NCBI RefSeq assembly: GCF_054482595.1 | Contig: NZ_CM137008.1 | Length of the DNA: 64,000 nt | Reading direction: 5' to 3' (one strand) | Part shown: positions 3,465-59,061 of the stretch, piece by piece | How positions within the stretch are numbered: the stretch's first letter is position 1 | Layout: every line of letters starts with the position of its first letter | The notes under the pieces: generated by a model | What the model was told of the DNA's origin: nothing | The model's input: the letters and a program-made list of their open reading frames with translations, nothing else | The model's database searches: none | Position numbers and translations under genes: made by a program

Positions 3465-4160
3465 ATGTCCCGGTCAGCGAAACCTCAAAATGGTCGCCGC
3501 CGCTTTCTGCGCGATGTTGTTCGCACAGCAGGCGGGCTGGCTGCCGTGGGTGTGGCGCTGGGGTTACAACAGCAAACCGCACGCGCATCTGGCGTGCGGT
3601 TGCGCCCGCCCGGAGCCATAAACGAGAACGCCTTTGCCAGTGCCTGTGTGCGTTGTGGTCAGTGTGTTCAGGCTTGCCCTTACGACACCTTAAAACTGGC
3701 GACGCTGGCCTCTGGTCTGTCGGCGGGCACGCCATATTTTGTCGCACGGGATATTCCTTGCGAAATGTGTGAGGACATTCCGTGCGCCAAAGTGTGCCCG
3801 AGCGGTGCGCTGGATCGTGAGATCGAATCGATCGACGACGCGCGGATGGGGCTGGCGGTGCTGGTAGACCAGGAAAACTGTCTCAACTTTCAGGGGCTGC
3901 GCTGCGATGTTTGTTATCGCGAATGCCCGAAAATTGATGAGGCCATCACCCTGGAGCTGGAGCGCAACACGCGTACCGGTAAGCACGCCCGCTTTCTGCC
4001 GACGGTTCACAGCGACGCCTGTACCGGCTGCGGTAAGTGCGAAAAAGTGTGCGTGCTGGAACAACCGGCAATCAAGGTGTTACCGCTGTCACTGGCGAAA
4101 GGGGAGTTAGGTCACCATTACCGCTTCGGCTGGCTGGAGGGGAACAATGGCAAATCGTAA
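3465..4160 (+). CDS. napG: ferredoxin-type protein NapG
   Basis: The 231-aa ORF has an RRRFLR Tat-like leader and four Cys-cluster motifs. Confidence 0.95.
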
Positions 4161-5010
4161 ACGTGACGCCGGGCGCGAGGCGCTGGAGAAAAAAGGCTGG
4201 TGGCGCAGTCACCGTTGGCTGGTGTTACGTCGCCTTTGTCAGTTCTTCGTGCTGGGGATGTTTTTGAGCGGTCCGTGGTTTGGTGTGTGGATCTTGCACG
4301 GCAACTACAGCAGTAGCCTGTTATTCGACACCGTTCCGCTGACCGATCCGCTGATGACGCTGCAAAGTCTTGCCAGTGGTCATCTGCCTGCCACGGTGGC
4401 GTTGACCGGTGCGGTGATTATCACCGTGCTCTACGCCCTGGCGGGAAAGCGATTATTTTGCAGCTGGGTCTGCCCGCTGAACCCGATTACCGACTTAGCG
4501 AACTGGTTACGCAGGCGCTTTGACCTCAATCAGTCTGCGACGATCCCTCGCCACATTCGCTACGTGCTGTTGGTGGTCATTCTGGTGGGATCAGCCTTAA
4601 CCGGCACGCTCATCTGGGAATGGATCAACCCCGTTTCCCTGATGGGGCGTAGCCTGGTAATGGGCTTCGGCAGCGGCGCGCTGCTTATTCTCGCGCTGTT
4701 TTTATTTGATCTACTGGTCGTTGAACACGGCTGGTGCGGGCACATTTGTCCGGTTGGCGCGCTTTATGGCGTGCTGGGTAGCAAAGGTGTGATTACCGTT
4801 GCGGCCAGCGATCGGCAGAAATGTAACCGCTGTATGGATTGTTTTCATGTTTGCCCGGAACCGCATGTGCTACGTGCCCCGGTGCTGGATGAACAAAGCC
4901 CGGTGCAGGTCACCAGCCGCGATTGCATGACGTGCGGTCGCTGCGTGGATGTCTGTTCTGAGGATGTATTTACAATAACTACACGATGGAGTTCGGGAGC
5001 GAAATCATGA
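4147..5010 (+). CDS. napH: membrane-bound quinol dehydrogenase ferredoxin subunit NapH
   Basis: The 287-aa ORF has TM helices, CxxCP motifs and C-terminal 4Fe-4S motifs. Confidence 0.95.
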
Positions 5011-5456
5011 AAAGCCATGACCTGAAGAAAGCGCTGTGTCAATGGACGGCGATGCTGGCCCTGGTGGTAAGCGGCGCGGTTTGGGCGGCTAATGGCGTCG
5101 ATTTTAGCCAGTCGCCGGAAGTATCCGGGACGCAGGAAGGGGCCATTCGGATGCCAAAAGAGCAGGATCGGATGCCGCTGAACTATGTGAATCAGCCGCC
5201 AATGATCCCGCATAGCGTTGAAGGTTATCAGGTAACGACCAATACCAACCGCTGCTTGCAGTGCCACGGTGTCGAAAGCTATCGCACCACTGGCGCGCCG
5301 CGTATCAGTCCTACTCACTTTATGGACAGCGACGGCAAAGTGGGCGCGGAAGTGGCTCCGCGTCGTTATTTCTGTCTGCAATGTCACGTACCGCAGGCCG
5401 ATACCGCGCCAATCGTGGGGAATACCTTTACCCCATCAAAAGGTTACGGGAAATAA
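5007..5456 (+). CDS. napB: dihaem cytochrome c NapB
   Basis: The start was chosen at MKSHDLKK (149 aa), where ATGA overlaps the napH stop. The protein has two CxxCH haem motifs (CLQCH). Confidence 0.93.
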   Translation: MKSHDLKKALCQWTAMLALVVSGAVWAANGVDFSQSPEVSGTQEGAIRMPKEQDRMPLNYVNQPPMIPHSVEGYQVTTNTNRCLQCHGVESYRTTGAPRISPTHFMDSDGKVGAEVAPRRYFCLQCHVPQADTAPIVGNTFTPSKGYGK

Positions 5457-5465
5457 GAGGTTATT

Positions 5466-6068
5466 ATGGGAAATTCTGACCGTAAGCCTGGTCTGATTAA
5501 GCGCCTGTGGAAATGGTGGCGTACCCCCAGCCGTCTGGCGCTGGGGACGCTGCTGTTGATCGGTTTTGTCGGCGGCATCGTCTTCTGGGGCGGCTTTAAC
5601 ACCGGGATGGAAAAAGCCAATACCGAAGAGTTCTGCATTAGCTGCCACGAAATGCGTAACACGGTGTATCAGGAATACATGGATTCCGTGCACTACAACA
5701 ACCGTAGCGGCGTCCGTGCGACCTGTCCGGATTGTCACGTTCCGCACGAGTTTGTGCCGAAGATGATACGCAAGCTCAAAGCAAGTAAAGAGCTGTATGG
5801 TAAAATTTTTGGCGTTATTGACACGCCGCAGAAATTTGAAGCTCATCGTCTGACGATGGCACAGAATGAGTGGCGGCGCATGAAGGACAATAACTCGCAG
5901 GAGTGCCGTAACTGTCACAACTTCGAGTATATGGATACAACCGCCCAGAAATCGGTTGCCGCGAAGATGCATGACCAGGCGGTGAAAGATGGGCAAACCT
6001 GTATTGATTGCCATAAAGGGATAGCGCACAAGCTGCCCGATATGCGTGAAGTCGAGCCAGGTTTTTAA
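5466..6068 (+). CDS. napC: tetrahaem cytochrome c quinol dehydrogenase NapC
   Basis: The 200-aa ORF has an N-terminal TM helix and four CxxCH motifs (CISCH, CPDCH, CRNCH, CIDCH). Confidence 0.96.
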   Translation: MGNSDRKPGLIKRLWKWWRTPSRLALGTLLLIGFVGGIVFWGGFNTGMEKANTEEFCISCHEMRNTVYQEYMDSVHYNNRSGVRATCPDCHVPHEFVPKMIRKLKASKELYGKIFGVIDTPQKFEAHRLTMAQNEWRRMKDNNSQECRNCHNFEYMDTTAQKSVAAKMHDQAVKDGQTCIDCHKGIAHKLPDMREVEPGF

Positions 6069-6080
6069 CAAGGTTATTGC

Positions 6081-6704
6081 GTGGGTATGCTTGAAGCCAG
6101 AGAGTTACTTTGTGAGCGGGATGAACGAACCTTATTTAGTGGCTTGTCATTTACGCTGAACGCAGGAGAGTGGGTACAAATCACCGGTAGCAACGGCGCG
6201 GGGAAGACAACGCTTCTCCGTTTGCTGACGGGGTTGTCTCGCCCTGACGCAGGCGAGGTTCTCTGGCAAGGGCAGCCCTTGCATCAGGTACGTGACAGCT
6301 ACCATCAAAACCTGTTATGGATAGGCCATCAGCCGGGGATCAAAACCCGGCTGACGGCGTTAGAAAATCTGCACTTTTATCATCGCGATGGCGATACCGC
6401 ACAATGTCTGGAAGCCCTGGCGCAGGCCGGGCTTGCCGGATTCGAAGATATTCCGGTAAATCAACTTTCTGCCGGGCAACAACGCCGCGTCGCTTTAGCG
6501 CGTCTGTGGCTGACCCGTGCCACGTTATGGATCCTCGACGAGCCTTTTACCGCGATTGACGTCAACGGCGTCGATCGTCTGACCCAGCGTATGGCGCAGC
6601 ATACGGAGCAGGGGGGGATTGTGATTCTGACTACCCACCAGCCGCTCAACGTTGCTGAAAGTAAAATTCGCCGCATTTCACTGACGCAAACGAGGGCTGC
6701 ATGA
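6081..6704 (+). CDS. ccmA: haem exporter ATP-binding subunit CcmA
   Basis: The 207-aa ORF has a GTG start, a Walker A motif GSNGAGKT and an ABC signature LSAGQQ. Confidence 0.96.
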
Positions 6705-27718: not shown

Positions 27719-27735
27719 TTTTGTGGAGAAAGTTG

Positions 27736-28083
27736 ATGCGTGATATGTATGAAGTAATGGATCGTTGGGGAGCTTGGGCTGCTTCAGACAATAGCGGAGT
27801 GGACTGGCAACCGGTAGCCGCTGGCTTCAAGGGACTTTTACCTCATGGCAAAAAGTCCCGGATTCAGTGTGATGATGACGAAGGCATTATGATAGACAGT
27901 TGTGTGGCTCGGTTGCGTAAATATAGGCCTGAAGAATATGAGCTAATCATTGCTCACTTTGTTATCGGTATCTCATTACGCACTATTGCGAAGAAGAGAA
28001 AATGCTCTGATGGGACTATAAGAAAAAAGTTGCAAGCTGCATTGGGATTTATTGATGCAGTTATATATATAATACATGGGTAA
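27736..28083 (+). CDS. late-gene antiterminator Q (QuuD/YbcQ family)
   Basis: The start was chosen at MRDMYEVMDRWGAWAA, with a GGAG 7 nt upstream. It is similar to the DLP12 and Qin Q proteins. Confidence 0.85.
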   Translation: MRDMYEVMDRWGAWAASDNSGVDWQPVAAGFKGLLPHGKKSRIQCDDDEGIMIDSCVARLRKYRPEEYELIIAHFVIGISLRTIAKKRKCSDGTIRKKLQAALGFIDAVIYIIHG

Positions 28084-28090
28084 TTTATTA

Positions 28091-28110
28091 GACGGCCATA
28101 TTGGCCGTCA
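28091..28110. terminator. bidirectional hairpin between Q and the convergent cargo operon
   Basis: The hairpin is GACGGCCAatatTGGCCGTC. It overlaps the stop codon of the 395-aa gene. Confidence 0.6.
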
Positions 28111-29295
28111 GCTAAATAAATATGTAATAGCATAAGGTGTAAGTAAAAAGTAGAATCTAAATGTAAGATATAAGCCACATAAAACTATAATTCCTAATGA
28201 GGCAAAAACAACTTTCTGAACAAGCAATCTTGTGGTTAAACTATCAAATGTATCCTTTATATCTTCGTAAATAGCCTTGAAGTTATATTCTGCTTGTTGT
28301 TTTTTATGATTTAACTCATCATTTATTGCTGTTAAAGTTTGCCATTGATTAAATAGAACAAATATAATCATAATAGTGAAGAACAATGCACCCAACACTA
28401 CAGCTGTGTTTATTAATGCTTGACTATCCCAACCATTAGCCTGCTTCATTTGAGTCGCAACGATAATTGTTGCGACGGGGATACCTAATATCTGATTTTG
28501 TATGTCACTGAATACTTTATGTATTTTCCCCATCTCTTCTATTTTGGCTACTCGTAACTGATCTAGTATTTTCTCGTAAGAAAAACCAGAAACGAATACT
28601 TTGTATCCTTTTTGATAACTTTCATAAAGTTGTCCTAAATCCCTTAACATGAAGGAAAAAGAGGTTTCTTTAGTTTTAGATTCACATGATGATTTTATAC
28701 TACTTGCTAAAATAGTAAGTTTTTGATCTTTATGCGTATCTTCTGCAAAGTTTGCGATCAAATTATGAATCAGATCTCCATTAACATTCATAAGATCATC
28801 GCTAGAATAATTTACTGGAATTTTTAGTACGTTGGATTCGACGAATACCAATTCAAAATTTGTTTCATCTAAATAAGCAGAACAATCTTTGAATAAAGTA
28901 ATTAAGCTCAAAACATCTCTGTACTTGGATATAATAGCAGGCGACTTTTTATCCCTGTTGTGATAATTAAGTTCGATTATAAAGAAGTTACTGGCTTCCT
29001 TTATCCTATTTTTAGGATTTTTTAAATACTCATTAAAAGAGAAATGTAGCTGCCCCAATCGTAATTTGGGGGGGGTTATATGTAAGGTTATAGTTTGGCC
29101 TAACTCAATGTTGCCAGATTCAAGGGTGATGCCAAAATCATGGGGATTCTCTGTGATATCGTTGATGATGTCACAGAGCTCCTCGTTTGAAAGAATGAGT
29201 GATGCTTCAGATAGGGTACCTGCAAATGTAGCGGCCTTGTAAATAGTCACTAAGTCTTTGAAGGTTCTCTGGTTTTTACTGCTCATCCTCTTCAC
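28108..29295 (-). CDS. 395-aa protein with a soluble N-terminal region and 2-3 C-terminal TM helices (candidate effector)
   Basis: The gene is AT-rich and overlaps the upstream gene by 20 nt (or 11 nt if ATG 29286 is used). Hydrophobic segments are ALINTAVVLGALFFTIMIIFVLF and VVFASLGIIVLCGLYLTFRFYFLL. Confidence 0.75.
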   Translation of the reverse strand: MKRMSSKNQRTFKDLVTIYKAATFAGTLSEASLILSNEELCDIINDITENPHDFGITLESGNIELGQTITLHITPPKLRLGQLHFSFNEYLKNPKNRIKEASNFFIIELNYHNRDKKSPAIISKYRDVLSLITLFKDCSAYLDETNFELVFVESNVLKIPVNYSSDDLMNVNGDLIHNLIANFAEDTHKDQKLTILASSIKSSCESKTKETSFSFMLRDLGQLYESYQKGYKVFVSGFSYEKILDQLRVAKIEEMGKIHKVFSDIQNQILGIPVATIIVATQMKQANGWDSQALINTAVVLGALFFTIMIIFVLFNQWQTLTAINDELNHKKQQAEYNFKAIYEDIKDTFDSLTTRLLVQKVVFASLGIIVLCGLYLTFRFYFLLTPYAITYLFS

Positions 29296-30310
29296 CTAAT
29301 TCTGATAAAATCTCTGATCTTAGCGTATCCGGAATCTCGGTAAGTATCAATTTATCGTTTTCTGAATCATAAAGAACGCTGCCATCATGCAAGGCCGCAC
29401 GCTCGAATTTCAGAGACCAATGTTTGGACTTTCCTTTGAAACTAACAAGCCCACGTATAACGTTGCCATCAGGCACGAACCCATCAGAGAACTCCAGATC
29501 GTCATTGGTTAACTTTTCAACTAACAACTCAGGAGCAGTTGGCCATATCTCGTTTGCAAAAATTTGAGTGTCGAAAGTTTCACCAGAACGATTTAAATTT
29601 TTTAATTTTTCATGAGCCTTATTTAGGAACTCTTCACGTGCCTCTGGTTCAAAACCTCTTTCAGTAGCAAATTCTAAAAGTGCATTCCGTAATTTTGTTG
29701 TTTCTTGTTTGGCAATTAGAATATCGTTGCAACCTAAAAACTTTTTGAAATAACCTGCTACTGAATTTTGCCCCTTTAGAAAGCTAATATATCTCTCTTT
29801 GCCATTCTGGCGCCCAGTTAAGTCAATTCGTCCCGCTACTCGAAGTTTAGCAATGTCTAGATATTCACTTTCTTGAATTTCAAAATCGTGGACTGAAGAG
29901 CCAACTGCTGAAGTTAGGATTGCAACCATCAAATAATGATTTCCATTTACCTCATTATGGGCAATTATTACATAACCACCAGTAGACATTGATTCATCAT
30001 CGGCTCTGGCTTTTAAATGATTGATCATTCGGATACTAGTATCATAAAAACTATGTGTTTTATTTACGAAATAATCATCAACGATATTACCCATAGGGTA
30101 ACTATCGCGGTCATCTTCAAATTTCCCATATCCTTTACCTGCTCTCCCAGAGTACCTTTCAGTAAGTGCGTTAGAGAGGTCTTTTGATGCTTGCTGAACA
30201 GGTTTTTCTGAAGGACAAGGAATAATGGTGGCTAACCCCTGTTGTTCCTTGTTCATAATGTGAACAATAAACTTATGAGTGATATTAGTGGGGGTCGCTG
30301 ATGCAGTCAT
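29276..30310 (-). CDS. NdpA/YejK-family nucleoid-associated-protein homologue (344 aa)
   Basis: An AAGGA Shine-Dalgarno lies 7 nt upstream. The protein aligns with host YejK encoded in this same window. YLDIAKLRVAGRIDLTGRQNGKERYISFLKGQNSVAGYFKKFLG aligns with [65 protein letters not shown] aligns with [17 protein letters not shown]. Confidence 0.85.
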   Translation of the reverse strand: MTASATPTNITHKFIVHIMNKEQQGLATIIPCPSEKPVQQASKDLSNALTERYSGRAGKGYGKFEDDRDSYPMGNIVDDYFVNKTHSFYDTSIRMINHLKARADDESMSTGGYVIIAHNEVNGNHYLMVAILTSAVGSSVHDFEIQESEYLDIAKLRVAGRIDLTGRQNGKERYISFLKGQNSVAGYFKKFLGCNDILIAKQETTKLRNALLEFATERGFEPEAREEFLNKAHEKLKNLNRSGETFDTQIFANEIWPTAPELLVEKLTNDDLEFSDGFVPDGNVIRGLVSFKGKSKHWSLKFERAALHDGSVLYDSENDKLILTEIPDTLRSEILSELGEEDEQ

Positions 30311-30426
30311 AACAACATCCTTTTAATGGTTTTGAACAATTGGTGTTGATAATACTTCAAAAAATACTAATGCGTACGCAAAAAATACAGTACTCTGTTA
30401 AGAGTGGTTACTTCGCCACACAGCTT

Positions 30427-30449
30427 AAACCCGCCGTTGAGCGGGTTTT
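30427..30449 (+). terminator. tR'-like terminator in the late leader upstream of the holin
   Basis: The hairpin is AAACCCGCcgttgaGCGGGTTT followed by a T-rich tract. This position is analogous to the lambda 6S RNA terminator read through by Q. Confidence 0.6.
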
Positions 30450-30600
30450 GTCGTTTCTGGGGCTGGGGATTCGTTGGTCCTGGTCTATTCCGCAGTTATC
30501 CATTGGTTCGGCTTCTTTGACGTTTCCGCTTCTAATTTGCTGTACATGATGTTCCCTCAATTTGCACCTGCTGTATCAGCGAGGTGAGAGATAACTACAA

Positions 30601-30927
30601 ATGCCTCATAACCCAAATACCTGGCTGGAGTTGGTCCAGAGCTGGTGGCGTGGAGACACACCACTGGGCGCAGTGATTATGTCGATCGTTATGGCTGGCT
30701 TGCGCATTGCCTATTTTGGCGGTGGTGGTGGCTGGAAGCGAAAAACGCTTGAGATTTTACTCTGTGGCGCTCTGACGCTGACATTTGCATCCGCGCTTGA
30801 GTATGTCGGATGGCCTAAATCACTATCTGTTGCCATTGGTGGTGGGGTGGGGCTGATCGGTGTCGATGCTATTCGTGGGGCTGCAATGCGAGTAATCGGT
30901 AACAAGTTTGGTGGCTCTAAGGAGTAA
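30601..30927 (+). CDS. holin, lambda S family
   Basis: The 108-aa ORF has 3 TM segments. Its C-terminus LIGVDAIRGAAMRVIGNKFGG parallels lambda S. Confidence 0.85.
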   Translation: MPHNPNTWLELVQSWWRGDTPLGAVIMSIVMAGLRIAYFGGGGGWKRKTLEILLCGALTLTFASALEYVGWPKSLSVAIGGGVGLIGVDAIRGAAMRVIGNKFGGSKE

Positions 30928-31896: not shown

Positions 31897-32190
31897 TTAT
31901 TGTGAGCAATACACCCGCGCTTCCAGCGGAGTATAAATGCCTAAAGTAATAAAACCGAGCAATCCATTTACGAATGTTTGCTGGGTTTCTGTTTTAACAA
32001 CATTTTCTGCGCCGCCACAAATTTTGGCTGCATCAACAGTTTTCTGCTGTCCAATTCCCGAAACGAAGAAATGATGGGTGATGGTTTCCTTTGGTGTTAC
32101 TGCTGTCGGTTTGTTTCCAACAGTAAACGTCTGTTGAGCACATCCTGTAATAAGCATTGCCAGAGCGGCAGAAAACAACATTTTTTTCAT
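31897..32190 (-). CDS. bor: Bor-family outer-membrane lipoprotein (serum resistance)
   Basis: The start was chosen at MKKMLFSAALAMLITGC (97 aa). It is a close match to lambda Bor. Confidence 0.92.
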   Translation of the reverse strand: MKKMLFSAALAMLITGCAQQTFTVGNKPTAVTPKETITHHFFVSGIGQQKTVDAAKICGGAENVVKTETQQTFVNGLLGFITLGIYTPLEARVYCSQ

Positions 32191-32714
32191 CTTATTATCC
32201 TGCATTGTTAAAAACGGCAGAATCCTATGTGACAACAATTAAACGATAGTTAAATGGATTGATGAAAATTAAAACTATATAGGTGTACGGTCAGACTATT
32301 GGAGGTAGTCAGGATTTGAATGTCAGTCTGTTGTCGGCATTCTGGCAATGCAATTTGGATAAAGCGGGGATTAAAAAGATAGAGGCGAGCCGGTCAGGTA
32401 GAAATGAATCAGGCTCAAATTGAAGCGGAAAAGGTCTGTGGCACAAACTGATGCTGCCATAATTACAGCCTGATGACTTGTGGAATGAAACATGTTGAAC
32501 CTCCTTAATTGATGTGATTCGAGTGAGGAAGGCATTCTGTCCCTCTATAGTGTCCATTAAATCAAACGGGAAATTTGTCTCATGCGTGAGACAAGTCTCT
32601 CCATTAGTGAGTTGTATTGATTGCGACTCTTCAAAGAATCCATTACTGCGTTGATGAAAAAGGTTTACTACGAATGAAGGCAGCTATTTCGCTGGTTTCT
32701 TCATTGGAGTACAT

Positions 32715-45009: not shown

Positions 45010-45456
45010 TTACTGTGCGAACACGCAATTTCGGCCTGATGGGGAGCCGACAATTCTGGACATTTTTTCGCAAATAACAGTTACTTGTTCTCCTTTTTTA
45101 AGAGCAGCAGCTGTTGATTTTTCAGAGTCTTGCATTTCCATTCTTGCTGGCATGAATTCATTTTCAGTTCTGAATTTAATAATTATAGAGTCAGTAAAGT
45201 CCTTATCAATGGATTGTACGATACCTCTAACGGCGATTAATTTACCTTGTAACTGTTCATCGGTAGCGACTTCATTTTCTTCATACTGTTTAAACAGCTG
45301 TCGAGCAGTAGTGTTGTAGATTTCTTTTTGCGGTGCCGCAGCTTCCGTATCGGATGAGTATGAAGAATTAGAGCCTTTATCGTTATTGCCTGCAAAATAT
45401 CCAATAATCACCAACCCGATGAAAATATATAAAATCCATTTTAATAATTTCTTCAT
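45010..45456 (-). CDS. membrane-anchored OB-fold (tRNA_anti-like) protein, moron
   Basis: The 148-aa ORF is AT-rich and lies on the opposite strand within the tail operon. It has an N-terminal TM helix. The pattern QLFKQYEENEVATDEQLQGKLIAVRGIVQSIDKD ... KKGEQVTVICE fits the family as I recall it. Confidence 0.7.
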   Translation of the reverse strand: MKKLLKWILYIFIGLVIIGYFAGNNDKGSNSSYSSDTEAAAPQKEIYNTTARQLFKQYEENEVATDEQLQGKLIAVRGIVQSIDKDFTDSIIIKFRTENEFMPARMEMQDSEKSTAAALKKGEQVTVICEKMSRIVGSPSGRNCVFAQ

Positions 45457-52980: not shown

Positions 52981-54870
52981 TTAATCGTGTTTTGGCCATA
53001 CTTTCAATGCAATTTCCCCCAACTTTTTACCCCGCTCCAGGATTTCATCCTCATCCCATTTATCCTTAACTATAAGTGGAATGTTCAGTCGTAGATTGGT
53101 GTGGACGATGAGAGCATCACGTTTTTTCAGAAATACAGCATTCTGAACAGAACGGTTTACGCTAAGGTTAAGCAAAGTTAGATTTCCCAACGTAGCTATC
53201 GCTTGTTGCCGTTTCCTTACCAGTAGCTGTTCAGGGGTAAGATCGGTTCCAGACAGAACAATTTGGTTCAATACCGTAGCATCTGAATTTGTCACCATAT
53301 GACCATTTTCGAGAGGCCAACAGGAAAACCAACTTTGAGGCATAAGATGATCGATATCGAGATTGGAAAGATTTGGACCATCAGGCTTCTCTGTCTTCAC
53401 TTGGCGACAAAGTTCTCTTTCAAGTTCCGTTAACATTGAGCGCATTTTCGGTGCGTCGAGCCTGCCAGGATAAAGTGGAGCATTGATGCAAGCATTGAGA
53501 AATTCTGAGTCACCAGGCCAACGTGAGGCTTCGCCATTTAAGCTATTGAGGATATTACGTAACTCAACACTGGAAATTTCCGTTTTAGACAAGTGCCGCA
53601 ATACATTCATAAATACATTGTTGTAATTCTTTGGCGTCAGGCCACATACGGCTCTTCGTACTACGTAGGAGACAAGATCATTATACATGGCTGCTTTCTC
53701 ATCATCAGCGATGTTAGCTATCGAAATGAACAAAGCAAGCGGATAAAGTGTCGTCACATCATAGTCTGCGATGCGATATCCAAAGTGTGAGATGGGGGTT
53801 GTGCCAAAACCATCAACCAATTCTTTATATTGTGATGCATATTGTTTGAGGCGCTTTACTTGCAGATCTGCTCGTTGTGAAGACAAGTCCTTACTTACAT
53901 AATCACGATACTCATTGTAAAGGCGAGACAGATCAATTTCACGCTGCCTTTCTGATTGCAATGTCGCATGTACTAGCCACTCCATGCGTGGTTTATTAAT
54001 ACGTCCACGGCGTTGCTTTTCCGACCAGTATTTATCTTCAAAGCTCTTCCACTCATTTTCATATAATTCAATAGCATTAATATTTTCATGCTCAGCGCAC
54101 ATAAAGATATAGTTGCGAATAAGATCCGTGGCATGAAGTTCCGCCCCTCGCCCATTTAATGTTTCAAAAATTATTTGGGCATCATCTTCAGCTTCGAGAA
54201 ATATGCTTACCAGTTTCAGATCTGTTAAGACAGCCTCAATTAGAGCTACAGCATTTTCTTGTGGTGAGTGGTTTTCTATTTTAATCCATTTTATAAAGGC
54301 TTCAGTAAAAAAACATAATGCTTCTAGTGATGGCGGGTGATTAAAATGCTTACGCAACGTACCATGCTGCGTGAAACTATCAGAGAATACGTCCCGGAGA
54401 TCGTCAATATTTTCAACATTAAAACTTTGAATAAAATGAGTTTGATCCCGAAAAGTTGGCCATAGTTTGAAGCGTTCTACTTCTTTATTTCGCATTGTGT
54501 CTTCGTTTGAGTTTTTCAGGCAAGGCGAAATGAGAGCCTCTAAGCTGAAAAGATCCGTAGCACGTAATGCTAATCGGATGGATGCCAGAACATATTGAAG
54601 AGTGGTCAATCGTTGCTGACCATCAATAATATGTATGGAATCTACACCTAATAATCCTTTTTTTGATTGAGGTTCCAGTACAACCGCACCAAGGAAATGG
54701 GGAGTTGGTTTTGTACCCGAGAGCCGGGATTGTGCTTTCTCTAGGATATCCTCCAGTAGAGCTGACCATTGGTCTTGCTGAGTCCATACATAGGCACGTT
54801 GATAGAATGGAACACAGTATTGTCGGCGGTCTTGAAAAAGTTGTTGGACAGTTAGCGTCTCGGATTTCAT
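52981..54870 (-). CDS. DUF262 (ParB-like NTPase) plus DUF1524 (His-Me/HNH nuclease) protein, GmrSD/BrxU-like type IV restriction candidate
   Basis: The N-terminus has FYQRAYVW and IIDGQQRLTT motifs. The C-terminus has DIDHLMPQSW ... LGNLTLLNLSVNRSVQN. The start was chosen at MKSETLTVQQ; the ORF track extends to 54930. Confidence 0.85.
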   Translation of the reverse strand: MKSETLTVQQLFQDRRQYCVPFYQRAYVWTQQDQWSALLEDILEKAQSRLSGTKPTPHFLGAVVLEPQSKKGLLGVDSIHIIDGQQRLTTLQYVLASIRLALRATDLFSLEALISPCLKNSNEDTMRNKEVERFKLWPTFRDQTHFIQSFNVENIDDLRDVFSDSFTQHGTLRKHFNHPPSLEALCFFTEAFIKWIKIENHSPQENAVALIEAVLTDLKLVSIFLEAEDDAQIIFETLNGRGAELHATDLIRNYIFMCAEHENINAIELYENEWKSFEDKYWSEKQRRGRINKPRMEWLVHATLQSERQREIDLSRLYNEYRDYVSKDLSSQRADLQVKRLKQYASQYKELVDGFGTTPISHFGYRIADYDVTTLYPLALFISIANIADDEKAAMYNDLVSYVVRRAVCGLTPKNYNNVFMNVLRHLSKTEISSVELRNILNSLNGEASRWPGDSEFLNACINAPLYPGRLDAPKMRSMLTELERELCRQVKTEKPDGPNLSNLDIDHLMPQSWFSCWPLENGHMVTNSDATVLNQIVLSGTDLTPEQLLVRKRQQAIATLGNLTLLNLSVNRSVQNAVFLKKRDALIVHTNLRLNIPLIVKDKWDEDEILERGKKLGEIALKVWPKHD

Positions 54871-55294
54871 GGTATACCTGTAAGCGACATTGTACAAAAG
54901 TGAGGAGTTAATCTGATTTAGAACAATCATTTTATTTTGCTATGATACAACGTATTTGTTACCGGTTAAGCAAAAAACGCGTCTGAACGCTGACGTTTTA
55001 GGGCTTTACTGGTTATTCTTTCTTATCTCTTCATCATCCCATCGGCATCCTGTCGAGGTTGTTGACTTGTTGTTATTTATTTTGTCTAGGCGCTGTTTAA
55101 TTATTATTGATAGAACTGATGGTGAGAGGTGATTGAAACCGTAGGCACGTCGTTTGCAAGGACGTGCTACGACTGGCTGGTGAATTTCCGATAGTGCGAG
55201 TATTGAATGATTTCCTACGTGCTAACTAGTGAACAAACAACTCTTCAGTAGACTCTCAGGTATCATTCAGAGTTTCCTGAACGAAAGTTTTAGC

Positions 55295-58053: not shown

Positions 58054-59061
58054 ATGAGTCTGGATATCAACCAGATTGCTCTGCACCAGCTTATCAAGCG
58101 TGATGAGCAGAACCTTGAGCTGGTGTTGCGCGATTCATTGCTGGAACCGACAGAAACCGTCGTTGAGATGGTGGCAGAACTGCATCGGGTCTATAGCGCC
58201 AAAAATAAAGCTTACGGCTTGTTTAGCGAAGAGAGTGAACTGGCGCAGACGCTGCGCTTACAGCGTCAGGGTGAAGAGGACTTTCTGGCATTTAGCCGCG
58301 CGGCAACCGGTCGCCTGCGTGACGAATTAGCGAAATATCCTTTTGCTGACGGTGGATTCGTGCTGTTTTGCCACTATCGCTATCTGGCGGTGGAGTATTT
58401 GCTGGTGGCAGTTCTGAGCAACCTGAGCAGTATGCGCGTTAACGAAAATCTCGACATCAACCCAACCCATTATCTTGATATCAATCATGCGGATATTGTT
58501 GCGCGTATCGATTTAACCGAATGGGAAACCAATCCAGAGTCCACCCGCTATCTCACTTTCCTGAAAGGGAGAGTAGGGCGCAAAGTGGCGGATTTCTTTA
58601 TGGATTTCCTCGGGGCCAGCGAAGGTTTAAACGCGAAAGCGCAAAACCGTGGGCTGTTGCAAGCGGTTGATGATTTCACTGCCGAAGCACAACTGGATAA
58701 AGCAGAGCGACAGAACGTGCGCCAGCAGGTTTATAGCTACTGTAATGAGCAGCTGCAGGCAGGCGAAGAGATCGAACTGGAATCGCTGTCGAAAGAGCTG
58801 GCAGGCGTAAGCGAAGTGAGCTTCACGGAGTTTGCGGCTGAAAAAGGCTACGAACTGGAAGAGAGCTTCCCGGCAGACCGTAGCACACTGCGTCAGTTGA
58901 CGAAGTTTGCCGGTAGCGGCGGTGGCTTGACTATTAACTTTGATGCGATGCTGTTAGGTGAACGCATCTTCTGGGATCCAGCAACCGATACCTTGACCAT
59001 TAAAGGCACGCCGCCGAATTTGCGCGACCAATTGCAGCGCCGGACGTCCGGCGGCAATTAA
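58054..59061 (+). CDS. yejK: nucleoid-associated protein YejK (NdpA)
   Basis: The 335-aa ORF begins [19 protein letters not shown]. Confidence 0.95.

Follow-up and report, generated by a model that had tools for sequence, protein, structure and literature searches.

The DNA analysed here is a 64,000-nucleotide stretch of contig NZ_CM137008.1 (NCBI RefSeq assembly GCF_054482595.1), referred to below as the window and numbered from its first letter. It is a piece of Escherichia coli (E. coli) chromosome with a prophage of about 39 kb, which occupies the region from approximately 16300 to 57000 between yejO and tRNA-Pro/yejM. This report is concerned with a cassette of two open reading frames on the minus strand, located between the antiterminator gene Q (27721-28083, plus strand) and the holin gene (30601-30927, plus strand) of this prophage. 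Gene 1 encodes a protein related to the host nucleoid-associated protein YejK and gene 2 a putative membrane effector, and the pair is probably a prophage-borne anti-phage system related to the recently described system DS-1. The features of the cassette and its borders are the following.

Approximately 28085-30357 (about 2.27 kb), minus strand: AT-rich, cargo-specific segment with the two-gene cassette, delimited by a dip in GC content and by alignment to the related prophage L072.
28091-28109, no strand assigned: hairpin GACGGCC-ATATT-GGCCGTC between the convergent genes Q and gene 2, overlapping the gene 2 stop codon (free energy -16.3 kcal/mol, z = -5.0).
28108-29286, minus strand: gene 2, the 392-residue partner and putative membrane effector (RefSeq WP_052516676.1, ATG start), homologue of the second DS-1 protein, DS-1B.
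28147-28503, minus strand: membrane region of gene 2 (residues 262-380) from a hydropathy scan, with the conserved juxtamembrane/first transmembrane segment motif QNQILGIPVATIIVATQMK and two strongly hydrophobic helices with a basic helical hairpin between them.
28642-29286, minus strand: N-terminal soluble region of gene 2 (residues 1-215) from an AlphaFold2 model, with net charge -5 and isoelectric point (pI) 5.7.
29276-29286 (11 nt), minus strand: overlap of the end of gene 1 with the ATG of gene 2, from the junction sequence and the RefSeq coordinates, with an AGGTGA Shine-Dalgarno-like site inside gene 1.
29276-30310, minus strand: gene 1, encoding a 344-residue YejK/NdpA-like nucleoid-associated protein, the putative sensor (RefSeq WP_000127202.1; phrog_3767).
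30311-30357, minus strand: cargo-specific leader upstream of gene 1, with the Shine-Dalgarno sequence AAGGA; the backbone boundary lies at about 30358.
30427-30458, plus strand: tR'-like intrinsic terminator of the phage late leader, from a terminator scan; backbone DNA outside the cassette, conserved in L072.

The cassette stands out from its surroundings by base composition, with a GC content of 0.30-0.41 over 28000-30400 versus 0.50-0.58 in the flanks. In prophage L072, which shares the backbone, encodes an identical holin protein and carries other cargo, homology stops at the end of Q and restarts at about 30358, and these two points therefore define the limits of the cargo-specific DNA given above. 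The original prediction, a model's reading of the letters of the window, had placed an AT-rich, antisense segment of about 2.3 kb between Q and the terminator and holin, and a hairpin near the end of Q; both were recovered. The terminator scan did not call this hairpin because it has no T-run. It is likely the transcription stop for the cassette, and it belongs to the cargo, as every alternative cargo has its own, different hairpin beside the Q stop codon. The stop codons of Q and gene 2 are 25 nt apart. At the other border, the scan called at 30427-30448 a plus-strand stem that resembles a terminator and is followed by a T-run. The backbone common to prophages with different cargo begins just about 70 nt upstream of this tR'-like terminator, and with so short a shared stretch PR' and the Q-binding site must fall within it, or the late transcript crosses the cargo; in 30358-30600 neither strand gave a consensus promoter. 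Within the cassette region, promoter-like sites were not more frequent than in shuffled sequences.

Judged from the junction sequence, gene 1 and gene 2 are probably translationally coupled, because of their 11-nt overlap and the AGGTGA site inside gene 1. Relatives keep an overlap or a gap of at most 2 nt between the two genes. Gene 2 has an alternative GTG start at 29295, from which the overlap would be 20 nt instead of the 11 nt counted from the RefSeq ATG at 29286; the two starts reproduce the range of 11-20 nt proposed earlier.

Gene 1 matched the Pfam family NA37 (PF04245) at profile positions 1-324 of 325 (E = 8e-69) and the host YejK encoded at 58054-59061 with 27% identity over 229 residues (E = 2e-23), including the sequence blocks from which the YejK/NdpA homology had first been recognised. 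Its sole solved relative is YejK itself (PDB 9be2, E = 1.7e-19). With the NCBIfam equivalog model for YejK (NF001557) it scored 164.8 bits, below the cut-off of 341, and gene 1 is therefore classed as a paralogue of YejK. No cysteine motif or zinc ribbon was found in its N-terminus. NA37 paralogues on mobile elements are known, for example Pnd of plasmid pCAR1. Phage-borne NdpA/YejK genes have been described before without a function. The host yejK lies only three genes beyond the prophage, about 28 kb from the phage-borne paralogue, and this closeness looks like a coincidence of the integration site.

Gene 2 belongs to phrog_5023 (E = 1e-79); in Pfam it gave a chance-level match to YbhQ only. 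An AlphaFold2 model built from 33 homologues (predicted local distance difference test, pLDDT, 82) folds residues 9-180 into an alpha/beta domain, which is followed by short helices (186-215) and by three very long ones (217-279, 288-335 and 337-382). Hydropathy analysis marked residues 291-313 and 357-380 as strong segments and 262-280 as a weaker one, all inside the long predicted helices, in agreement with the earlier description of a soluble part followed by two or three hydrophobic helices. Lys and Arg are frequent in the hairpin formed by residues 314-356, which in our own reading favours three membrane helices and a cytoplasmic N-terminal domain. Residues 1-215 are presumed to form a cytoplasmic docking domain for the nucleoid protein. 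The invariant residues of the gene-2 family are concentrated at 227-281, and the motif QNQILGIPVATIIVATQMK aligns with QTKALTIPGALIAAG of DS-1B. Across the family, the N-terminal region up to residue 260 has a median net charge of -8 (range +3 to -15) and a median pI of 5.3. A PDB sequence search with the family profile returned nothing meaningful, and fold searches gave no specific relative (Foldseek with the gene-2 model against the PDB, best E = 0.68).

The two genes travel together. A search of IMG/VR with gene 2 returned 32 loci, one of which was cut at a contig end and left out; in all of the 31 informative viral loci an NA37 gene is located directly upstream on the same strand, with identities reaching as low as 37% for gene 2 and 48% for gene 1. 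Scanning one genome from each species gave 32 loci, four of them C-terminal fragments and a few repeating contigs already counted, and here all full-length gene-2 homologues (28/28) were paired with an NA37 gene. These loci span Gamma-, Beta- and Deltaproteobacteria, a metagenome-assembled genome (MAG) of the Thermoanaerobaculia and a MAG of a candidate phylum. Linkage outside this prophage, on which the original prediction had staked itself beforehand, is thus far beyond chance. A profile search among 1.84 billion representative proteins found 1123 gene-2 relatives (50% clustering) at E up to 0.001. In other lambdoid prophages the pair is convergent with Q and adjoins the lysis cassette, as in the window, while in Gallionella it lies in a non-phage chromosomal islet among ParD and PemK toxin-antitoxin genes.

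Some loci depart from this pattern or add to it. Cupriavidus (L068-L070, approximately 3962-4627) and a Nitrosomonadales MAG (L071, 3881-4096) carry pieces of gene 2, of about 220 residues or a 72-residue fragment, that comprise just the C-terminal conserved motif and the membrane region and have no NA37 gene upstream; these truncated homologues could be remnants or a stand-alone membrane module. In Pseudoalteromonas (L039:4838-7206), a DS-1B-family member is preceded by a 387-residue protein without a recorded Pfam match, which matched the NA37 hidden Markov model (HMM) built here (E = 2e-37), and the pair adjoins an integrase gene and a DprA-like gene. Diverged NA37 sensors can thus escape Pfam annotation. 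In some Mu-like prophages, a group that is considered below, a Dam methylase gene stands beside the pair.

The position occupied by the cassette holds different genes in related prophages. Their backbone (PerC, RusA, KilA-N, DUF968, Q) is about 90% identical, and the minus-strand cargo differs at the same slot.

L072:5708-7435, minus strand: cargo in the slot of strain 167, a TIGR04255-family protein and two hypothetical proteins.
L073:5691-7152 and L074:5691-7152, minus strand: cargo in the slots of strains R3 and 88.0502, hypothetical proteins of 308 and 182 residues.

These alternative cargoes had no match in PADLOC, in the NCBIfam defence models or in the DefensePredictor tables. These uncharacterised candidates share the slot with DS-1, and because they match no defence model it is DS-1 only that lends the slot its defence character. 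DS-1 (D390) was described by DeWeirdt, Mahoney and Laub (Science 2026; PMC13092281) and consists of WP_000355468.1 (391 residues; DS-1A) followed by WP_000150292.1 (404 residues; DS-1B). Cloned with its native promoter it protects E. coli MG1655, with values of -log efficiency of plating of 7.6 for Bas1, 2.7 for Bas26, 1.7 for Bas3, 1.7 for T3 and 1.0 for T5; the study gives no mechanism. The DS-1 copy of E. coli O104:H4 is convergent with Q, and the backbone around it is likewise PerC-Dam-LexA-RusA-KilA-N-DUF968-Q. Between Q and the lysis genes, these E. coli prophages have a site at which cargo is swapped, with at least one validated defence system among the cargoes. Among 5426 complete E. 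coli genomes, DS-1 was found in 106 and the window cassette in 15.

Sequence comparison connects the two cargoes. BLASTP aligned gene 1 with DS-1A at 25% identity over 197 residues (E = 3e-10), from DS-1A residue 63 onwards, and gene 2 with DS-1B at 28% identity over 104 residues (E = 4e-7). Profile alignment of the gene-2 and DS-1B families with hhalign gave a probability of 98.75% (E = 1.5e-16) over 350 columns, that is nearly the full length, and the HMMs of the two families match each other's members reciprocally; gene 2 is therefore a full-length homologue of DS-1B. Given these sequence comparisons and the shared position, the window cassette and DS-1 are homologues that occupy one and the same prophage slot as alternative cargoes. 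NCBIfam holds models for both members of the two-gene system (NF053868, DS1_1_antiphage, 'nucleoid-associated anti-phage protein'; NF053869, DS1_2_antiphage). Moreover, DefensePredictor Table S10, which covers 3,000 E. coli genomes, contains the exact protein encoded by gene 1, WP_000127202.1, and labels it a 'predicted novel defense gene' (log-odds 9.14; PMC13092281).

The same layout has been reported for type II PANGU, which pairs the YejK-like protein Pag2A with the effector Pag2B (Li et al., bioRxiv, April 2026; 10.64898/2026.04.06.716658). In that study, Pag2B carries an acidic 'DMK' domain at its N-terminus and a transmembrane region at its C-terminus, and the tested example is from uropathogenic E. 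coli. Defence requires both genes, neither of which is toxic on its own; when the multiplicity of infection is high, cultures stall, and abortive infection is reported. Pag2A-GFP leaves the nucleoid for the cytoplasm upon T4 infection, and Pag2A binds the DMK domain of Pag2B with a dissociation constant (KD) of 19 nM. For type I PANGU, DNA binding depends on a basic triad in the clamp pore, and a triad mutant is constitutively toxic. The survey in the preprint retained only operons of nucleoid-associated proteins (NAPs) located no more than 10 kb from a known defence locus; the preprint also describes lysozymes as partners in NAP operons, and it mentions neither DS-1 nor prophages.

Together, these data make it probable, at roughly 70%, that the cassette is a prophage-borne two-gene anti-phage system composed of a YejK-like nucleoid protein and a membrane effector, that is a divergent homologue of DS-1 with the architecture of type II PANGU. 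By analogy with the latter, the sole source of a mechanistic model, the gene 1 protein would sit as a dimeric clamp on the chromosomal DNA of the lysogen and would be released once the DNA of the host is degraded or disturbed by an infecting phage. The free protein would then bind the cytoplasmic N-terminal domain of the gene 2 protein, whose two or three C-terminal helices would hold it in the inner membrane. The effector might in turn damage the membrane through ion leak, depolarisation or lysis, leaving a cell that no longer supports phage growth, i.e. abortive infection. Since the cassette is transcribed against the late operon, it could be expressed from the repressed prophage. The defence role of the clade in the window, its trigger, its membrane topology and the action of its effector on the membrane are what we infer from these relationships.

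Several observations weigh against this interpretation. Protection has been demonstrated for DS-1 only, whereas the window clade is a prediction (log-odds 9.14). Both proteins score far below the NCBIfam cut-offs for DS-1: gene 1 reached 56.2 bits with NF053868 (E = 2.8e-15, residues 56-247 only; cut-off 330) and gene 2 reached 70.3 bits with NF053869 (E = 1.5e-19; cut-off 315). PADLOC-DB v2.0.0 (2023), one of the checks suggested with the original prediction, matched neither protein to any family at E up to 1; another of these checks, NA37/PF04245 for gene 1, gave the full-length match reported above. The link to type II PANGU is one of architecture only, and the acidity of the gene 2 N-terminal region is mild (net charge -4 to -5, pI 5.7-6.0). 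No sigma-70 consensus site was found by the promoter scan on the minus strand upstream of gene 1.

Gene 1 itself adds to these points. The YejK sequence KGRVGRKV aligns with KG--QNSV in gene 1 and its close relatives, in a loop shorter by two residues, so that the basic triad of YejK (R173/R176/K177) and of Pag1A (K200/R203/K204) is replaced by Q-N-S. This triad has been shown to matter in YejK (PMC11229321). Distant relatives of gene 1 retain one arginine of the triad; gene 1 keeps K171 and R280 and has extra lysines nearby, in YFKKF and FKGKSK. Finally, at least 19 loci from Mu-like prophages of Enterobacterales and Betaproteobacteria have the pair on the sense strand immediately upstream of holin and endolysin, and these copies are kept while the terminase diverges to about 60% identity. 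Such a conserved sense-strand module could point to a role in the phage's own cycle. Loci of this group are given in the following line.

Approximately 4000-6200 of each locus, sense strand: cassette of the Mu-like group in L017, L018, L020, L021, L024-L028, L033, L036, L037, L043-L045, L048, L050 and L051.

A function in the phage's own cycle is accordingly the first alternative. The pair would couple the state of the DNA to membrane events, such as the timing of lysis, or would handle the nucleoid during replication, and the lambdoid copy would be a transferred module. We hold this to be unlikely. The Mu-like loci speak for it, as do the position of lambdoid copies next to the lysis cassette and the lysozyme-paired NAP operons (10.64898/2026.04.06.716658), but the homologous DS-1, placed alone in a phage-free strain, protects against unrelated phages, and the window cassette occupies a cargo-swapping slot and runs antisense to the late operon. 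The non-phage copy among toxin-antitoxin genes also speaks against a phage-cycle function, and conserved accessory genes of prophages are often defence genes. The doubt can also be put more broadly for the clade as a whole: it may be a switch owned by the phage, through which a signal related to DNA leads to lysis control, exclusion of incoming DNA or a similar event at the membrane, or it may respond to a cue other than host genome degradation, and the lambdoid copy would then have been captured. Such a switch is conceivable because the triad has been lost and because the Mu-like sense module lies upstream of holin and endolysin; we give this wider possibility a low probability as well.

That the pair acts by superinfection exclusion rather than by abortive infection, with incoming phage DNA blocked or trapped at the inner membrane and the cell surviving, appears improbable to us. 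A membrane anchor together with a protein of a DNA-binding family on a prophage would suit such a mechanism, and DS-1 blocks Bas1 by more than 7 logs, all-or-none as in early blocks; DS-1 acts, however, on phages that differ in receptor and entry route (Bas1, Bas26, T3, T5 and T7). Likewise, gene 1 is without the basic triad for clamping chromosomal DNA, and because of this loss sequestration of its protein on the nucleoid is not assured, but both the stalling at high multiplicity and the shift from nucleoid to cytoplasm in type II PANGU fit abortive infection. It is very improbable that gene 1 is an accessory nucleoid protein which, like pCAR1 Pnd, tunes transcription of the AT-rich prophage or the host, with gene 2 as an unrelated membrane moron: NA37 paralogues do occur on mobile elements, and phage NdpA/YejK genes have been reported with no function attached, but the two genes overlap, are linked in all full-length cases looked at across phyla, and are both needed for defence in type II PANGU.

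A prophage-borne anti-phage system of sensor and membrane effector thus remains the interpretation that we prefer. It retains the core of the original prediction, which had seen a sensor coupled to a membrane protein at a moron site as an abortive-infection or exclusion system: DS-1 homology, the shared slot, the type II PANGU architecture and the linkage of the genes argue for this, while the clade of the window is itself at the stage of prediction. The accompanying remark that the pairing was not recognised as a named defence system has been overtaken, given the models NF053868 and NF053869, the entry of WP_000127202.1 in Table S10 and the naming of the layout as type II PANGU in 2026. Membership in a characterised system applies to the wider family and not to the window's own clade.

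DS-1 and type II PANGU were published only in 2025-2026, and annotation pipelines label the present clade 'hypothetical protein' because the NCBIfam cut-offs and the 2023 release of PADLOC miss it. The family is large, with members in several phyla, and in one group of Mu-like prophages it has become fixed. The cassette and DS-1, homologous yet highly diverged and found in the same slot of one species, form a natural pair for the study of phage specificity and of the essential contacts between sensor and effector. The triad loss in gene 1 offers a direct test of nucleoid sequestration as a general principle of sensing.

Other features of the window were noted as well. Core genes (nap, ccm, yejO) fill the first 16.3 kb, and the prophage integrase gene lies at approximately 18.7-19.9 kb; on the far side, tRNA-Pro, yejM, yejL and the host yejK (58054-59061) follow. 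The prophage joins a lambdoid early region to a contractile-tail late region with sheath, tube and baseplate genes. Just past the Rz gene, a Bor/Iss serum-resistance lipoprotein gene, a classic lambdoid moron, lies antisense at 31897-32238 on the minus strand (Pfam Lambda_Bor, E = 2e-30), in a second AT-rich dip with a GC content of about 0.41. A small OB-fold protein is encoded at 45010-45456 on the minus strand (Pfam tRNA_anti-like, E = 1.5e-18), antisense between the tape-measure and DNA-circularization genes of the tail module; it had no PADLOC match, and its gene is likely another moron. An intact type IV (modification-dependent) restriction enzyme of the GmrSD type is encoded at 52981-54930 on the minus strand (PADLOC mREase_IV, 1418 bits over the full length; Pfam GmrSD_N and GmrSD_C), towards the far end of the prophage region, as a second defence gene there. 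In strain 50EVA an IS3 element abuts the equivalent of this gene, which is annotated there just as a 602-residue DUF262-domain protein.

Among known proteins and systems, the chromosomal YejK (58054-59061; PDB 9be2; PMC11229321) shares with gene 1 the fold family, the full-length NA37 match and the sequence blocks. It differs in its GRVGRK pore loop, which is shortened in gene 1 and has lost its basic residues there, and it stands alone, whereas gene 1 is always accompanied by a partner gene. Type I PANGU (Pag1A with the GRel toxSAS Pag1B) resembles the proposed mechanism in that a YejK-like nucleoid clamp, once released, activates an effector, but this effector is a soluble alarmone synthetase and not a membrane protein, and gene 2 has no similarity to it. 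Closer in layout is type II PANGU, defined by a YejK-like protein in a bicistronic operon (gap under 40 bp), as found in the window, and by an effector with a C-terminal transmembrane region, as predicted for gene 2 by hydropathy. From the type II system the cassette differs in the weakness of the 'DNA-mimic' acidity in the gene 2 protein (net charge -4 to -5) and in the basic DNA-contact triad, which gene 1 does not keep.

From DS-1 the cassette differs in sequence, with identities of about 25-28% that cover only part of each protein and of about 15% between profiles; DS-1A carries an N-terminal CxxC...CxxC zinc ribbon (MDITCLECG...CDKCG) that is missing from gene 1, and gene 1 scores closer to YejK than to DS-1A. 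The window cassette is thus not to be called DS-1 itself, because it falls below the equivalog cut-offs and is without the DS-1A zinc ribbon. What the two have in common is a two-gene operon in which an NA37/YejK protein comes first and a protein of about 400 residues with C-terminal hydrophobic helices comes second, in the order A then B on one strand, with an overlap of 11 nt in the window and a gap of 2 nt in DS-1.

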